A stretch of DNA of 64,000 bases from Escherichia phage B9-1: the sequence record OQ420740.1; one strand, 5' to 3'. Below, in pieces: positions 33,989-59,704 of the stretch. The stretch's first letter is position 1, and each line of letters opens with the position of its first letter. The position numbers and the translations under genes are program-made. A model generated the notes under the pieces. It was not told the origin of the DNA and made no database searches. It saw nothing but the letters and a program-made list of their open reading frames with translations.

Positions 33989-36766
33989 ATGAGCATGTGG
34001 TCGTTCGATTTTGAGGCCTCTGGCCTGCTGGAAGACCCAGATCTTTATTATCACTGCGGTTTGTTTAAAGAGCTGAATAAGAACCGTTTTATGCTGTTCC
34101 TTCCTCTAAATGACCGCACACACTACTCTGAAGAGGATGTGGAGAAAGCTAAGAACTTCATTCTGGCAAAGAAGACCCTTTATACAGATTTTGATGTTCG
34201 CATAGCAGATTTTTCAGAGTTGGAGGGTTGGCTTACAGGTAACTCAGACTGGTCACCTACAGCTTTGAACTGTCATAACTGCTACAGCTACGACTTTATG
34301 CTAATGGAGAGATTATCCGGTATTCATTTTGATATGTTCCGTGATCCTAAATGCATGGGGACTATCAACGACCACCAGGTTAATCTGTTCGATACGTTAG
34401 CAATGAGTCGAATCTTGTGGCCTGACCGCCCTTTGCCAAAAGGTTGTCCGGACGCAGTATTTAATCCAGTTACCAAGAAAATGCAGCCTGTTGGGCCTCA
34501 TGGCCTTATGGCATGGGGCTATGCCCTTGGTAACCAGAAAGTTCAAATCGATGACTGGCGTGAGCTTCCGCTGTGGAAGTATGTGGATCGTGTGTTCGAG
34601 GACGTTATCATTCAGGAGTTGCTCTGGAAGGAGTTGGTAGCTGAATCAAAAGGTGTATTCTACGGCAAATCTGACATGCAGAACTTTATGTACGATCCTG
34701 CCAAAGAGAAGCCGAAAGGCTTCAAGAAGATCACCTGGAAGAACGCATTACGCCGAGGCATGTTACAGCACTTCCTGATGGAGCTGCAGGCTCGACAGGG
34801 GGTGTATTTCGACATAGATGGGGCTATTGCTCTACGTGACCGTTGCGATGCGTGGATGAAAGAGATCGCTGATCGTGTTGAACCACAACTCCCTTTAAAA
34901 GAGCTATCAATGTCTCAACGGCCTAAGTTTCCTGAAAAGCCGTTTAACCAGGATGGGACAATCTCCAATAATGGTTGGAAATGGTTAAAAGACAAGCTTG
35001 GCTACCCTGTGGACATGAGTGCTTTAGAGTTCAAAGCTCCTCCTAAGCGAGCATTTACCTCCACAGGGGATGTAAGTAAGATGGGGATAAAATGGTGTGA
35101 AGAGATGGGCTGTAAAGACCCCGATAAGATGGCTGATTTCTTGAGGGGGTATATCAAAGGAACTTCTACACCACACCCTTTACCTAAAGAGCTGATGGAT
35201 CAGGCGATAAGTGACCTACAGCAGAAGCGAATGCCTGACTGCAAGATACCTATGAAAATCAGCAATCAGGACGACATCAAGCGATACCTGATCAGTGCTG
35301 GTTGGCTCCCAACAATGTGGAGAACTAAGGATGTAACTAAGGACAGCAAGAAGAAAGCTTTACCTGATGCAGATGTTGATGCACGAGTATATGCATATAT
35401 GGACGAGCTTTTGGAGTCAGAGTATTGTGACCTAATTATCAACTTCTGGAACAAAACTGATGCTAAGTTCCAGACAACTGTACATAAGTTCAGAAGCTTC
35501 CCTAACTCTGAAAGAATTAAAAAGGAAGTGTTCGGGAAAATACGTAGAAAAGCCAGAGCGCTTATTACTTCTCCGCAACTGAAAGATACGTTTGGACACC
35601 TATGTCCGAATCTTGAAAAATTGAACGGAGAGATGGCTAAAGATATCGTTTTGTGGTTATCATTGCGAAACCGCAGATCGGTCCTTGATCCAATCAAGGA
35701 AGATAAGGTCGATACTGGTCTTCTTAATCATCCACGTTTGAAGATTGACCACAAGCTTCCTGCTAAAAGTTCTGGATTAACAAACACTTCCAGACAGAAA
35801 CATAGTATTTGTGCAAACATGCCTAAACCATCTCCTAAAGTGGTTATGGGTAAAGAGATGCGTAGTCTGTGGGGTGTTCCTCCGGGATACTTTGAGATCG
35901 GTATTGACGGGTCCAACTTAGAGCAGCTCATCGGGGCCTGGGGTGCCTTTGAGTTTGACAACGGTCTGTATTATGATGTTGTAAGTAACGGGGACGCGCA
36001 CCAAAACAATGCTGAGGCATATACAAAAGTAGCAGGTAGAGAGGTGTCTCGTAACGATGGTAAACCTATCACGTATGGGGTTATGTATGGGGCACAAAAA
36101 GATAAAGTTGCAGATATGCTGGATATCTCTCCAGAACTGGGGCAGAGAGTAATTGATGCTCTCTGGGATGCCAACCCAGGTCTTAAGGGGCGCAAAGAGG
36201 ATCTGGAGAAATTCTGGGAAGCAACAGGTAAGAAATTTATCTACTCTTTTGACGGGCATGCCATTTGGACCCGCTCTAAACACTCTTTGCTTAATGCATA
36301 TCAGCAAAATGGCGGTGCATCGTTGTGCGACTTGGTCGGAATCCTCATGCACCACCAAATGGTGAAGCGTGGATGGTATGATGAAGGTGTTCGTCGTATT
36401 ATTTATTACCATGACGAATATCAGCTTCAAGTGCCTGACACCCCTAAGTATAAAACTGTATACACCTTCGACACAATTGAAGAGCTGGAAACATTTAAAG
36501 CCCAACAAGAGGCTAAACTTCATGTGTTCGACGGTCATAAGTACAAAAAGGCACGCAAAGATGAGGACGGAAACGAAGTGGTTGACAAGGACGGAAATAC
36601 GGTATACGATCCTATCTTGAACGATGACGGAAAGCTTGAACTTATCTGGAGCCCTGTGGGCGAAATGGTGGTGCATTGCTTCTGGCAGGCTTCTAAAATG
36701 ATGGGCGTTCCGTTCCAGATCACAGGTGAATACTTGTGCGGTCGTAACTGGGGCGATTGTCACTAA
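33989..36766 (+). CDS. DNA polymerase, family A (Pol I-like)
   Basis: 925 aa; exonuclease-like FDFEASGL near the N-terminus; motif A GIDGSNLEQL, motif B KPITYGVMYG, motif C YHDE. Confidence 0.75.
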   Translation: MSMWSFDFEASGLLEDPDLYYHCGLFKELNKNRFMLFLPLNDRTHYSEEDVEKAKNFILAKKTLYTDFDVRIADFSELEGWLTGNSDWSPTALNCHNCYSYDFMLMERLSGIHFDMFRDPKCMGTINDHQVNLFDTLAMSRILWPDRPLPKGCPDAVFNPVTKKMQPVGPHGLMAWGYALGNQKVQIDDWRELPLWKYVDRVFEDVIIQELLWKELVAESKGVFYGKSDMQNFMYDPAKEKPKGFKKITWKNALRRGMLQHFLMELQARQGVYFDIDGAIALRDRCDAWMKEIADRVEPQLPLKELSMSQRPKFPEKPFNQDGTISNNGWKWLKDKLGYPVDMSALEFKAPPKRAFTSTGDVSKMGIKWCEEMGCKDPDKMADFLRGYIKGTSTPHPLPKELMDQAISDLQQKRMPDCKIPMKISNQDDIKRYLISAGWLPTMWRTKDVTKDSKKKALPDADVDARVYAYMDELLESEYCDLIINFWNKTDAKFQTTVHKFRSFPNSERIKKEVFGKIRRKARALITSPQLKDTFGHLCPNLEKLNGEMAKDIVLWLSLRNRRSVLDPIKEDKVDTGLLNHPRLKIDHKLPAKSSGLTNTSRQKHSICANMPKPSPKVVMGKEMRSLWGVPPGYFEIGIDGSNLEQLIGAWGAFEFDNGLYYDVVSNGDAHQNNAEAYTKVAGREVSRNDGKPITYGVMYGAQKDKVADMLDISPELGQRVIDALWDANPGLKGRKEDLEKFWEATGKKFIYSFDGHAIWTRSKHSLLNAYQQNGGASLCDLVGILMHHQMVKRGWYDEGVRRIIYYHDEYQLQVPDTPKYKTVYTFDTIEELETFKAQQEAKLHVFDGHKYKKARKDEDGNEVVDKDGNTVYDPILNDDGKLELIWSPVGEMVVHCFWQASKMMGVPFQITGEYLCGRNWGDCH

Positions 36767-44724: not shown

Positions 44725-44753
44725 TTGAAAATCCCTGGCACATCAAGTATAAG
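44725..44753 (+). promoter_or_regulatory. sigma70-like promoter
   Basis: TTGAAA, 17-bp spacer, TATAAG, immediately followed by SD AAGGAGG and a short ORF. Confidence 0.45.
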
Positions 44754-44766
44754 GAGGATTTCTAAA

Positions 44767-44874
44767 ATGGACTTCCTCCTTTTGATATTTTACCTGGCCG
44801 GATATTTTAAAATTCTTAGAAAATCAGAAAATGGATCGAAAACTAAAATGGATTTTTCAAGACAGGCGCGATAA
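44767..44874 (+). CDS. putative micro-protein (35 aa, hydrophobic N-terminus)
   Basis: ATG 8 nt after strong SD AAGGAGG; MDFLLLIFYLAGYFKIL...; below track cutoff. Confidence 0.3.
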   Translation: MDFLLLIFYLAGYFKILRKSENGSKTKMDFSRQAR

Positions 44875-45032
44875 GATGTGCTGCTCATTCTATCGTTCGC
44901 ACCGTACTTTAAGTTACTATTCCAGATTTTCCGCACATACTCTCACCCTTCTACCAGGACTTTCCCAGCTTACCTTTGACCCTTTATAACAATAAACCCA
45001 TTATTCTCAGTAGGTTTTGATACATCTCTCTC

Positions 45033-45198
45033 AGTACTCGATCTGTTTTTCGTTTCAAAGATTGAATTTTCTGAAAATTTTTCTCGATAAATTTCTTAGT
45101 ACTCGATCTGTTTTTCGTTTTCTGAATCAGATTTTCTGGAAATCGTTCCGGAGCTCGACCTGAAATTTTTGGGGACGAAATCGATTTTTCGTTTTCGG
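45033..45198. repeat. iteron-like direct repeats
   Basis: 23-bp AGTACTCGATCTGTTTTTCGTTT at ~45033-45055 and ~45098-45120, with degenerate copies GCTCGACCTGAAATTTTTGG (~45151) and AATCGATTTTTCGTTTTCGG (~45179). Confidence 0.55.
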
Positions 45199-45326
45199 AA
45201 ATGGATTTTTAAAATTTGTATATGGAAATACTTAAGGAGGTATTATTTTATATAGAATTGTCACGGTAGGTAATTAGCATGCTAACTAAATTTATGAAAT
45301 GCGAAAAGTTCTCATTTAGAATTTTG

Positions 45327-45380
45327 AATGATAATCATTCTCGTTTGCAGAATAACGGGCACCCCCGGTGATTGTCTCCC
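45327..45380. repeat. GC-rich conserved element, copy 1 (AATGATAAT...CCGGTGATTGTCTCCC)
   Basis: AT-rich arm AATGATAATCATTCTCGTTTGCAG then core CCGGTGATTGTCTCCC (45365-45380); repeated ~130 bp downstream and in inverse orientation at 54119. Confidence 0.5.
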
Positions 45381-45456
45381 GGCCCCTGTTGCCCCGGCTT
45401 GTTATTATAGTATCACACAGGACAAAGAAAGCAAGGATTTTTTGCATAAATTTTTA

Positions 45457-45514
45457 AATGATAATGATAACCGTTCTCATTTTATGCAGCGCCCATCCCC
45501 GGTGGTTGTCTCCC
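45457..45514. repeat. GC-rich conserved element, copy 2
   Basis: AATGATAATGATAACCGTTCTCATTTTATGCAG then core CCGGTGGTTGTCTCCC (45499-45514). Confidence 0.5.
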
Positions 45515-45699
45515 CCGTCACCGGTGCCTGCCGTCCTTTCGATAGGTATATTGTGCCACCTGGCGGGGCCGCTGTCAACACTTTTCAAAAAAATTCTAAC
45601 CTGATGCGCTAACCGTTGCAACCTGGCGGGGCCAGCCTGGCAGGGCTATGCTATAGGGTAGGCAACAACTGAAGAGGAGGTACAAAAATAAAAGGTAAT

Positions 45700-45867
45700 A
45701 TGATCCCTGGAAATGTAGCGATTAATGACGCTGAGGCTATCGCCCTGGTTGAAAAGGCTATGGCGGGAGCGTTGGAACATAAAGAAGAGTACGAAAAAAT
45801 GATGGTTAACCTGGCAGGGCGGCGGCTGGAGAATTCTGCCCAAAAAATAATTCTAACTAATGGTTGA
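45700..45867 (+). CDS. putative small protein (55 aa)
   Basis: ORF MIPGNVAINDAEAIALVEKAMAG... with coding-like composition; weak SD AAAGG; below track cutoff; overlapping antisense track ORF 45646..45843 looks spurious. Confidence 0.3.
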   Translation: MIPGNVAINDAEAIALVEKAMAGALEHKEEYEKMMVNLAGRRLENSAQKIILTNG

Positions 45868-53703: not shown

Positions 53704-53838
53704 ATGAGAAAGATAATTATTACCATAGGGATCGTGGCGGCAATGTTGGCGATCTTTCCCCTTATGGTTAGGTATGTGCTGATCAGTGTTGTCCTGGTAG
53801 TCAGCGATCTAATGTTATATATTAACTCATTGTTTTAG
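53704..53838 (+). CDS. putative hydrophobic micro-protein (44 aa)
   Basis: ATG 2 nt after the upstream stop; MRKIIITIGIVAAMLAIFPLMVRYVLISVVLVVSDLMLYINSLF; no clear SD. Confidence 0.3.
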   Translation: MRKIIITIGIVAAMLAIFPLMVRYVLISVVLVVSDLMLYINSLF

Positions 53839-55412: not shown

Positions 55413-55430
55413 TTTCTTAACTGAATTATC

Positions 55431-55458
55431 AAGGGGCTTAAAGGCCCCTTTCTTTTTG
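55431..55458 (+). terminator. rho-independent terminator
   Basis: AGGGGCTTAAAGGCCCCT hairpin followed by TTCTTTTTG, 20 nt after the stop at 55412. Confidence 0.7.
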
Positions 55459-56074
55459 TCTGCTCTTCTCCTACCATAAACGGCCCTACCTGGCAAGTGG
55501 AATAATTGACTAGCCATCAATCCCACACACTGTACAAATATACATATAAAATAACTATTGCATAATCTTTCACTGTGTGGTAGCAGGGCCATTTTTACCC
55601 GTTTTCTCTCCCAAAAGTGCACGTAATGCCGCTATTGCACAAATTTTAACCTGATGCACATCTCCAATATCTTGTCAACAACTAAAAATCTTTATAAGTC
55701 ATACACTTACACAACATAGAAAGCGTGTCCTACGCGAAAAATCGAGTATAACTATAGCCGCCAGATCTCAGAATTCACGTACGAACACCATTCTATAGTC
55801 TGCAAAGTATTTATTCCAACCACAGAATAACGGAATAGTCAATACCTGCATAAAATAATTATTCGTGTAAACTGCATAACATAAATCAGCTCAGGTGTCA
55901 ACATTTTTCGTAAACAGTCCGAAATTATCACGATGAGTTATCATAAACAGAGAAATCTTTAGTCGTCTAATGTTTACTGTACATTACTATACTGACTGGA
56001 ATCATTAGATGACTAAGAGAAAGATAAGAAATAATTAATAATGTAATTGTTTTACCTGTAACAATAAGGCAACT

Positions 56075-56094
56075 ATGCAAACGAATGGCATGGC
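56075..56094. repeat. 20-bp direct repeat, copy 1
   Basis: ATGCAAACGAATGGCATGGC, identical copy 213 bp downstream. Confidence 0.6.
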
Positions 56095-56213
56095 GCGACG
56101 GAGTCGCGACATAATATAAAAGCAGTAACAATCACCCCCGTGATAGTTTTTCTGCAATCTATTACTCAGATCATAGTTGCCTTGTATTTAGTTAATCATG
56201 ACATAACAAGCAA

Positions 56214-56241
56214 GGCAACTATAGATCTTCTAATAGTTGCC
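56214..56241. repeat. 28-bp palindrome
   Basis: GGCAACTAT AGATCTTCTA ATAGTTGCC: perfect 9-bp inverted arms; the same arm sequence (AGGCAACTAT / ATAGTTGCCT) also occurs at ~56066 and ~56172. Confidence 0.55.
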
Positions 56242-56287
56242 CTGCTTTTATATTATGTCATAGATTGTTAGCTTGTTAATTGTTTTC

Positions 56288-56307
56288 ATGCAAACGAATG
56301 GCATGGC
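56288..56307. repeat. 20-bp direct repeat, copy 2
   Basis: ATGCAAACGAATGGCATGGC. Confidence 0.6.
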
Positions 56308-56333
56308 TTATCATCTCTGTGTAAACTGTTCAG

Positions 56334-56359
56334 GCGTAAACAGTCTATGCGTAAACAGT
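56334..56359. repeat. tandem 11-bp iterons (GCGTAAACAGT x2; third copy at 56653-56663)
   Basis: GCGTAAACAGT at 56334-56344 and 56349-56359, preceded by inverted partial TGTAAACTGTT; third copy at 56653. Confidence 0.55.
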
Positions 56360-57866
56360 GAGATATGGAATAGTAACAGCCGTTATTGTGTCATATTGTG
56401 TGACATTGTGTCCGGTGTCTGGTGTCCAGTGTGTCAGACAAGTTTTTCTCCTCTTTGTCAAGTGCTGCATGAAAAATTTACAAACTGGTATGGTAGCATT
56501 TTTGCGGCCCTGTTTACATTCAGGAATGTATGTATAATCCTTGTTGTGTGGGCGTTTAGACGTCTGGACGGTCAGAAGTCTGCAGGTCAATATCTAATCT
56601 ATTGGTTGCTAACTATATCCCACACAAATAGTAAGAAATATAATTGTTATATGCGTAAACAGTAACCCATGTTATCAATCCCTGCATGTATCGCCAGTGG
56701 TGCGCATAATGGGTATTATGTTAAATTGCCCGTAATGATAACCATTCTCACAATGATAGGTATTCTCATTCACTCCCACAAGATAGATTGCAAATGTTGT
56801 GCCACTGTGTGAACGGCCTGGCCTATTAATTTGCCTCACTGCCTCGATATTTGAGAATTATTATAAAAATGAGAAGTATTCCCATTCCGTCCGCCTGGCA
56901 GCACTCCTGTAGGACAGGCACAAAATCGGGGTATAACTGGACCTGTTCAGATATTTCTGGCTGACTCTTCAGGCCTGTGTGGGAAAAGCCAACCTCTCCG
57001 GCGGCGGGGAGGGGTCAATTAAAAAATTTACGTGGTGTATGAAGCGCTCTTCAGGTAAGGCAGGTATTATGGGATGAAACCCTCTTCAGATGATGATATT
57101 TGTGGGTGTGATATTTGCTGGAAAGCCAGATATGACGGGACTCCCGGCAGGGGTGGGGTAGTACAGACAGGGAAAATGTGGGAATGTGATGGAGTAAATT
57201 GATCAGGTAGGTAGGATATGGAATATGTTACAAGTATGTTAAATATGGAGGTAGGATATTTGTAAGATTTGTGTGTAAAATCAAATACTTAAGTGGTGTT
57301 GTGGTATTTTCTATAAATAATTCAAGTTTAATAGGTGATATTTGTCTCCATCCACTTTGTGTGGTAAACAGATTCTAATTGAATTGGTTTACAAGTGTAT
57401 ATAAAGTATACAAATTAAAGATATAAGAAACCCCCCTCCCCCTTCGGCTACCATTCACCTTTTCCTCTGACTGGTACTTAAACACTTATTCAGACTCTTC
57501 AGGTTATCACCCATATACTATATGGCAGTGACTGGTGTCCTCCGGCCCCTCTTTCGTCACCCGTCCGCTTCGCCATGCTAATGCCATAGCCAAATGTTCG
57601 GTTGTTCACCCTGTTCACTCAGGTGTATCTCCATACCCCTTCAAACCGAAGAGAACAGAAAACCCGAATTACTCGGTAAAAGAAAAGAGAAGAACTTAAT
57701 TTTATCAAGATAGGCAAGAATGTCAAGGGATGACTGCTCACTAAACAAGCAAACAGTCATGTGTGGTGGGTAAGTAACTGTGTTGGTAGGAAATTTAGTT
57801 GAAAGATGTTATAGGTGCCTCCAGAACCTTAGCTGGGCAGCTAAACCTGCAAAGCAGACTTGTGTG

Positions 57867-59398: not shown

Positions 59399-59704
59399 TT
59401 ATTCTACAGAGCGTTTGAACAGAATGTCTGCTTCAGACATGTGCTCAACCTCCTCTTCGATTTTAGCTCGACGTTTTTCAGCTTCGTAGCGGATATCGAA
59501 CTCGGTAGCCACCAATGACTTGATAAACTTAGGAGAATACAAGTGATCCTGTTTCTCGACAAGAATAATATCCTTGATAGCGTCTTTCAGATCTTTAATC
59601 TGAAGCTGAAGTTCCACCAGCTCTTCAATTGTTTTACGGAGGCGATCACGCTCTGCAATGTCAGAAGGAAGAGAGGTGAACAGTTCAACTTTAGATTTAG
59701 CCAT
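59399..59704 (-). CDS. hypothetical coiled-coil protein
   Basis: 101 aa, SD AAGGAGA; Lys/Glu-rich heptad pattern. Confidence 0.55.
   Translation of the reverse strand: MAKSKVELFTSLPSDIAERDRLRKTIEELVELQLQIKDLKDAIKDIILVEKQDHLYSPKFIKSLVATEFDIRYEAEKRRAKIEEEVEHMSEADILFKRSVE

Follow-up and report, generated by a model that had tools for sequence, protein, structure and literature searches.

A conserved three-unit repeat array at the inner boundary of the small early-gene block of rV5-like phages: a candidate site for protein binding, replication initiation or early control

The DNA analyzed here is a stretch of 64,000 nt from Escherichia phage B9-1 (sequence record OQ420740.1), referred to below as the window. 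It belongs to a Vequintavirus, an rV5-like coliphage, and is 99.2% identical over 2.5 kb to vB_EcoM-ECP26; besides ECP26, 112 further records cover the region. Between 23.5 and 36.8 kb the + strand encodes rIIA/rIIB, a Dda/Pif1-type helicase, two DNA methyltransferases, a T7-type primase-helicase and a family-A DNA polymerase. The polymerase gene ends at 36766, which is 8 kb upstream of the repeat array described below, and no function could be assigned by Pfam or PHROG to the genes that fill these ~8 kb. The earlier note had put the repeats next to the replication genes. This adjacency is loose, as the stretch of genes without an assigned function intervenes after the polymerase. Downstream, small + strand genes continue up to about 55.4 kb, and the array is positioned at the inner boundary of this terminal block of small early genes (roughly 10 kb). 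The non-coding gap around the array measures ~0.9 kb (roughly 44780-45700) and is nearly empty in the ECP26 annotation. The interval to which the earlier note had drawn attention, 44880-45330, is the right region, but its limits are too narrow: the repeat system reaches ~44783 upstream and a promoter cluster extends to ~45650 downstream. The features of the gap are collected in Table 1.

Table 1. Sequence features in and around the repeat array (window coordinates; a dot in the strand column means that no strand is assigned)
Feature	Coordinates	Strand	Details
Upstream short-repeat cluster	44783-44860	+	GATATTT twice, then AAATGGAT(C/T)-type motifs
Hypervariable spacer, first third of the reported region	44876-45023	.	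TCTCA-type motifs at ~44938, 45001 and 45022
Repeat unit 1	45024-45088	+	Exact 23-mer at 45033-45055; core CTCGATCTG at 45037-45045, then TTTTTCGTTT; second sub-site GATTGAATTTTCTG; A/T tract AAAATTTTT
Repeat unit 2	45089-45149	+	Exact 23-mer at 45098-45120; second sub-site AATCAGATTTTCTGG
Repeat unit 3, rearranged in Vequintavirus	45150-45215	+	CTCGACCTG at 45154-45162; ATCGATTTTTCGTTTT at ~45180-45195; AAATGGATTTTT at 45199
AT-rich, easily melted stretch between array and promoters	45199-45290	.	Includes the 60-mer of lowest stability (45199-45258) by nearest-neighbour free energy
Promoter-like unit with two Fur-box-like palindromes	45294-45350	+	Degenerate palindrome at 45298-45317; TTGAATGATAATCATTCTC at 45324-45342
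Conserved GC-rich element GGGCACCCCCGGTGATTGTCTCC, then extended -10-like TGTTATTAT	45351-45420	+	96-100% identity in the genus; promoter by inspection
Second box and GC element	45450-45560	+	Fur-like box GATAATGATAACCGTTCTC at 45460-45478, 16/19 to the Fur consensus

The absence of a convincing ORF from the interval, claimed previously, was borne out. Mechanical ORFs of 48-52 aa do overlap the region, but close relatives carry indels in them whose lengths are not divisible by three and which destroy the frames, and 44876-45330 has no annotation in ECP26, the nearest annotated relative. The small ORFs at 44831-44989 and 45017-45163 were discarded on these grounds, their frame not being kept in relatives. 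We consider it very unlikely that the repeats form part of a transcribed product, be it a structured noncoding RNA with repeated modules or a set of small proteins. Small proteins could be argued for from the mechanical ORFs, and the indels argue against them. For an RNA there is a precedent, as the related Certrevirus phage PhiTE reportedly carries a repeat-based pseudo-antitoxin RNA locus, a type III antitoxin mimic. Here, no Rfam match was obtained at E-values up to 1, and folding was no better than that of shuffled sequences on either strand (z-scores -0.51 and +0.24); a structured noncoding RNA was rejected on this basis. Just upstream, a possible 35-aa hydrophobic ORF (44767-44874) with a strong Shine-Dalgarno sequence, AAGGAGG, overlaps the GATATTT/AAATGGAT cluster. 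ECP26 annotates a 108-nt CDS at this place, and in other genera the cluster is non-coding.

The array contains the 23-mer AGTACTCGATCTGTTTTTCGTTT. As the earlier note had stated, it is present in two exact copies starting at 45033 and 45098, that is, 65 bp apart. The 64-kb window contains no additional match with up to three mismatches, and 100 dinucleotide shuffles gave none at the same tolerance. A search of the whole window for further copies of the repeat unit likewise returned none beyond the array. The earlier note also mentioned degenerate copies. There is a third unit, which is both degenerate and rearranged: over a 47-nt register, 45163-45209 shows 72% identity, the core has the variant form CTCGACCTG, and the TTTTTCGTTTT motif is shifted to ~45185. 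In the alignment, the counterpart of this unit in Mydo-, Seuna- and Certrevirus is the third canonical CTCGATCG unit. The units, spaced by 65 and then 52 bp, are composite and all have the same orientation; in each, a CTCGATC core that is in part a palindrome is followed ~26 bp further on by a second sub-site and then by an A/T tract. The AT-rich short repeats reported together with the 23-mer were recovered as GATTTTCTG-type motifs at 44923, 45064 and 45128. The upstream cluster also contains AAATGGATTTTT motifs, to about 44783, and its motif types are found 3' of the upstream gene in CR3, GAP31, Hena1, KB57 and ESCO13 as well.

The region is rich in A+T (65.9% for 44876-45330 versus 56.4% for the whole window). 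Nearest-neighbour free energy identifies the segment right after the array, 45199-45258, as the least stable of all 60-mers in the 64-kb window; among 100-mers, the one from 45200 comes second. In this respect the segment 45199-45258 resembles the AT-rich DNA-unwinding element that adjoins an iteron-type origin. GATC sites are not enriched in the window (3 in 976 bp versus about 4.8 expected); other genera have more of them.

The three units were used together as a 192-nt query. It matched at full length in all 116 Vequintavirus records, with at least 90% identity in 114, whereas the 148 bp preceding the array produced a blastn match in 35 phage records only (at least 95% identity in six). Identity to rV5 follows the same division: 61% for the spacer, 97% for unit 2, 98% for unit 3 and 100% for the promoter with the Fur-like box described below (the box promoter). 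Judging by these comparisons, the array is under strong purifying selection. The same three-unit array was found in the homologous gap of Klebsiella Mydovirus, Seunavirus, Certrevirus, Henunavirus and several IMG/VR contigs. The geometry in the other genera comprises a CTCGATC(G) core, a CGTATT-type sub-site at +26 and an A4-6T4-5 tract at +45 to +47, with unit periods of 74-78 and then 63-67 bp. All 16 aligned sequences, which represent at least five genera, have the CTCGA motif unchanged. Phapecoctavirus shares the gap and the downstream promoter, but different AT-rich direct repeats replace the array. In two IMG/VR phage genomes (L047 and L072) the box promoter is present without a CTCGATC array. 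A mini-CRISPR array was dismissed, as the 'spacers' are themselves conserved across genera. We conclude that the array is a real, conserved and previously undescribed cis element. The literature that we searched contains no description of this element, nor of an origin, for the rV5-like group, and no published map of its early control region; in the rV5 paper the origin was never located (PMC3606486).

The AT-rich stretch is followed by a cluster of promoter-like sites. The first of them, 45294-45350, is the best-conserved non-coding segment (80-89% identity in distant genera) and is invariant in our alignment A1. Its box at 45324-45342 is situated between TTGAAT (-35-like) and CAGAAT (-10-like) hexamers; the palindrome of the conserved segment reads TGA(G/T)AATCATTCTCA, with GGGCACCCCCGGTGATTGTCTCC after CAGAAT. 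The 19-bp E. coli Fur consensus GATAATGATAATCATTATC is matched at 15-16 of 19 positions at 45324, 45460 and 56731, and Fur-like sites with no more than four mismatches number four in the window versus 0.35 expected. A Fur box would be recognized by the consensus or by a 7-1-7 palindrome overlapping promoter hexamers; the palindromes, not the iterons, appear to conform to this description. The boxes suggest lytic-phage early promoters that may be responsive to iron via Fur. The repeat units themselves were also considered as sigma-70 promoters and rejected, since inspection of both strands gave no acceptable -35/-10 pair and a promoter scan was negative inside the units.

Several additional observations concern the boxes and the GC-rich sequences associated with them. 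In total, Fur-box-like palindromes were noted at 45324-45342, 45460-45478, 56731-56749, 56752-56767 and 53706-53724. The exact 45324-type box occurs in 72 IMG/VR contigs, unrelated ones among them, and at locus L032 three tandem boxes stand just upstream of a consensus TTGACA-N17-TATAAT promoter. In Vequintavirus the unit made up of a Fur-like box and a CCCCGGTG(A/G)TTGTCTCC element occurs in two copies 134-136 bp apart (45314-45420 and 45450-45560). Other genera have a single box unit followed by a GC-rich non-coding element of ~100 nt, ACTACCGGCGATCCACCTTCC...GTTAGCCCCGCCTTTTCGCCGTGGGGTGGCG, which is kept from Certrevirus to Phapecoctavirus 3' of the box promoter and is absent from the window (L006 1672-1775, L007 1668-1775, L009 1650-1745, L010 1695-1795, L005 3165-3270 and L011 424-530). 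This element has no Rfam match, and its consensus fold consists of two hairpins with a single compensatory pair. In the window, the motif CCTGGC(G/A)GGGC occurs four times (45559-45569, 45622-45632, 45636-45646 and 45810-45820), just upstream of the first small gene or within its start.

Where the genome ends is important for interpreting any repeat-rich non-coding region. The record of Vequintavirus HdK5 has an exact 459-bp direct terminal repeat corresponding to window 56437-56895, about 11.2 kb from the array. In the ECP2303 record the genome is opened at window 56436/7, and several other independent Vequintavirus records break at ~56350-56440, as calculated from the position of a marker gene. 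In Schickermooser (Phapecoctavirus) a 328-bp terminal repeat lies about 13 kb past the homologous gap (PMC6563267). KPP-1 (Mydovirus) has a 514-bp terminal repeat supported by coverage and PhageTerm (PMC9862379), 8.5 kb from the KPP-1 array. The flanks of the KPP-1 repeat show no detectable protein similarity to window ORFs, and the correspondence between KPP-1 and the window was set via a conserved 271-aa gene and the array. Based on the terminal-repeat positions in HdK5, KPP-1 and Schickermooser, we place the termini in a second non-coding gap, 55420-57860, a 2.4-kb region between the + and - gene blocks that holds the equivalent of the HdK5 repeat. This gap probably contains the terminase recognition region. 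Its AT-rich minima are comparable to or stronger than the one beside the array, and it holds the least stable 100-400 bp stretches of the window. Repeats in the second gap include GCGTAAACAGT at 56331, 56346 and 56650 and the exact 20-mer ATGCAAACGAATGGCATGGC at 56075 and 56288; GTGTC/GACAC motifs are clustered just outside the repeat boundary, at about 56380-56436.

These positions bear on the alternative raised in the earlier note, a packaging site. Non-coding repeats are a typical feature of terminase recognition regions, and the linear record of Seunavirus EC152 (PP681140) breaks exactly within the invariant core of unit 1. Compared with GAP31 (L007 1237-1260), 8 nt (TACTCGAT) are missing at the EC152 junction; the break could be an assembly artefact, or else a nick or end at the core. 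It is a single record without stated end mapping, whereas the terminal repeats of three related groups map 8.5-13 kb away from the arrays or the homologous gap and the independent Vequintavirus records break near the HdK5 repeat instead. The terminal-repeat mapping led us to reject a terminus or packaging site at the array, and a role as packaging signal or physical terminus (pac, cos or terminal-repeat boundary) is extremely unlikely. Some reports describe Vequintavirus as circularly permuted or headful-packaged. Packaging in this genus is therefore not fully settled, yet there is no evidence for an end at the array.

The distance to the terminus invites a comparison with the injection stop signal (iss) of T5. 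The array might be a DNA-entry pause or boundary element of this kind, though we consider this improbable. In such a scheme, rV5-like DNA would be delivered in two steps: transfer would start at the nearby terminus, bring in the terminal 8.5% with the small early genes and the Fur-box promoters first, and pause at the array until released by early proteins. The distance from the physical end to the far edge of the array is 11.9 kb, or 8.5% of the 139.3-kb genome, and the first-step-transfer DNA of T5 constitutes 7.9% of its genome (10.1101/866236). The layout is similar in KPP-1 and Schickermooser, given the distances above, and in each case the intervening small genes are transcribed toward the end from array-adjacent promoters. 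As with the T5 iss, which is a repeat-rich non-coding region of ~1 kb or more, better conserved than the neighboring ORFs, about 8% of the genome from the terminus and bounding small early genes (10.1101/866236), a non-coding repeat-rich region of ~1 kb is here far better conserved than its neighbors. In geometry, then, the locus is iss-like: a conserved repeat-rich non-coding region at a small fixed distance, bounding early genes. Vequintavirinae and T5-like phages are also both highly sensitive to daunorubicin, a drug that blocks T5 after first-step transfer (PMC13250531). However, the argument is purely geometric, and daunorubicin sensitivity occurs in unrelated families too (PMC13250531). 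The first-step DNA of T5 lies inside a 10-kb terminal repeat, not beside one of 0.3-0.5 kb as here, and the paired DnaA boxes and long inverted repeats of the T5 iss have no counterpart: we found no DnaA consensus and no long inverted repeats in the array, and hence no paired DnaA boxes in inverted repeats. Two-step entry has so far been documented only in T5-like siphoviruses and has never been reported for this group. If such entry were true here, a mechanism known only from T5-like phages would reach a large group of myoviruses.

A different role is suggested by the position of the array relative to the promoters. It might be an upstream operator or enhancer that binds a phage regulator or a host architectural protein, which would activate or later shut off the box-containing early promoters at 45294-45650 driving the small-gene block. 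We regard this as possible but somewhat doubtful, and only slightly less likely than the origin role discussed below. The array lies upstream of the most conserved promoter-like element, at a distance of about 110-300 bp, and its phased A/T tracts suggest DNA bending. In this respect it resembles the three Fis sites of rrnB P1, likewise a set of three phased sites with A/T tracts that falls within ~300 bp on the upstream side of strong promoters. However, the units here are much larger and have a GC-containing specific core and, as far as we looked, no Fis, IHF or CRP consensus; three composite units of 65-75 bp are also unusually large for an operator. Moreover, since the same box promoter occurs without the CTCGATC array (in L047, L072 and Phapecoctavirus), the promoter does not require the array.

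Experimental evolution of EC152 provides a link to a putative regulator. In six of eight evolved populations SNPs were present at record positions 4 and 23 (PMC13307863), which by our own reading fall into the TTTTTC and CGTATTT sub-sites of unit 1. They co-occur with two SNPs beside Fur-like boxes in the EC152 second gap and with the substitution P14T in WZX10670.1, the latter seen in seven of eight populations (PMC13307863). WZX10670.1 belongs to phrog_639 ('transcriptional regulator'), a family found only in Vequintavirinae-type phages and a few Aeromonas phages. The window encodes a homolog of 101 aa (59399-59704, minus strand) that is 56% identical. For this protein we obtained only weak Pfam/NCBIfam matches, no PDB sequence match and no Foldseek match for the AF2 model, which consists of two long helices (pLDDT 78, pTM 0.35). 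The co-occurrence of the mutations favors an operator or enhancer, and the predicted regulator, being two long helices without a PDB fold match, weakens that case. Among candidate DNA-binding proteins, only the phrog_639 protein is linked to the array, by way of these mutations. The SNPs indicate that the array contributes to fitness or, failing that, is carried along with a haplotype under selection; perhaps they represent one pre-existing haplotype, which would detract from their value for the operator reading. Overall, the EC152 evidence speaks for transcription control no less than for replication, and the two roles are not mutually exclusive.

Taken as a whole, the data make it highly probable (roughly 0.85) that the array is a functional protein-binding cis element. 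Of the specific functions considered, the primary replication origin of Vequintavirinae is the likeliest, but it is a tentative proposal, to which we give less than even odds. The repeats, their uniqueness, conservation and geometry, the AT-rich minimum and the position relative to the termini were observed directly, whereas protein binding, melting and initiation at the array are inferred. As a cis-acting assembly site, the three-unit array (45024-45215) would recruit a sequence-specific DNA-binding protein, which would bind and bend the DNA at all three units. Negative supercoiling from divergently firing early promoters might then aid the opening of the AT-rich stretch at 45199-45290, onto which the T7-type primase-helicase and the family-A polymerase would load.

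An origin is favored by the uniqueness of the repeats in the window and their strong conservation next to a hypervariable 148-bp neighbor, by a three-unit geometry common to Mydovirus, Seunavirus, Certrevirus, Henunavirus and IMG/VR relatives, and by the position of the least stable 60-mer directly downstream. Other repeats in the same slot of Phapecoctavirus would be expected if the site and its binding protein swap together. Laboratory selection on EC152 touched unit 1; at the same time, those SNPs co-occur with the regulator change, pointing equally to transcription control, and may be hitch-hiking on a pre-existing haplotype. With iteron origins (lambda ori, P1 oriR and pSC101) the locus shares same-orientation direct repeats immediately beside an AT-rich, easily melted segment, as well as an element that is unique in the sequence examined and has different repeats in its slot in a related phage group. 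The differences from these origins are equally clear. Classical iterons are tandem and 19-22 bp long, whereas here composite units are placed 52-78 bp apart, and the array, unlike lambda ori, does not lie inside an initiator gene. No initiator-like gene was found in the array flanks by Pfam or PHROG, so that the flanking proteins, having no function by either, were dropped as initiator candidates. Consensus sites for DnaA (TTWTNCACA) or IHF (WATCARNNNNTTR) are absent from 44725-45700. A resemblance to the oriC 13-mer was rejected as well: GATCTGTTTTTCG fits the consensus only with two mismatches, and the fit is worse in other genera. The origin signature proposed in the earlier note therefore stands in its anatomy, a unique and conserved array with an AT-rich minimum next to it, but falls short in the lack of an initiator and of DnaA/IHF sites and in the atypical spacing.

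The replisome genes of the window (primase-helicase, family-A polymerase and Dda/Pif1-type helicase) are T7-like, which is in favor of an origin at such a place. The primary origin of T7 is located at the boundary of early and DNA-metabolism genes, beside promoters. The present phage shares with T7 the type of replisome, and the array likewise has a position at the boundary of early and DNA-metabolism genes, beside promoters and AT-rich DNA. T7-type replisomes, though, do not need iteron-binding initiators. The order of elements also differs: in T7 (1.1A/1.1B and the AT-rich region) the AT-rich DNA is directly downstream of the promoters and there is no repeat array, whereas here AT-rich DNA and repeats are upstream of promoters that fire away from them, the promoter-like sites at 45294-45650 coming after the AT minimum. 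GC skew shows no inflection at the array, either in our own computation or in PMC3606486. Finally, the second gap, with AT-rich minima that are equal or stronger and several families of direct repeats, is an equally good candidate for the origin.

When coliphages, Salmonella phages or Klebsiella phages are put forward for therapy and biocontrol, rV5-like phages and their relatives figure among the most frequent choices. In these phages the array represents a precise, conserved and testable candidate for an origin and/or an early control region, with defined units to mutate, and one that laboratory adaptation has already struck in Seunavirus. A known origin and early switch would aid phage engineering, the reading of coverage and termini data and the understanding of host take-over.

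One further observation concerns database records. Between 16 and 18 GenBank records designated 'Campylobacter phage' (MG0656xx; A13b, A140-A142, C2, C9 and others) are about 92% identical to the region, and these records of purported Campylobacter jejuni phages encode the phrog_639 regulator at 99% identity. By sequence, they look like mislabelled or contaminating Vequintavirus genomes.
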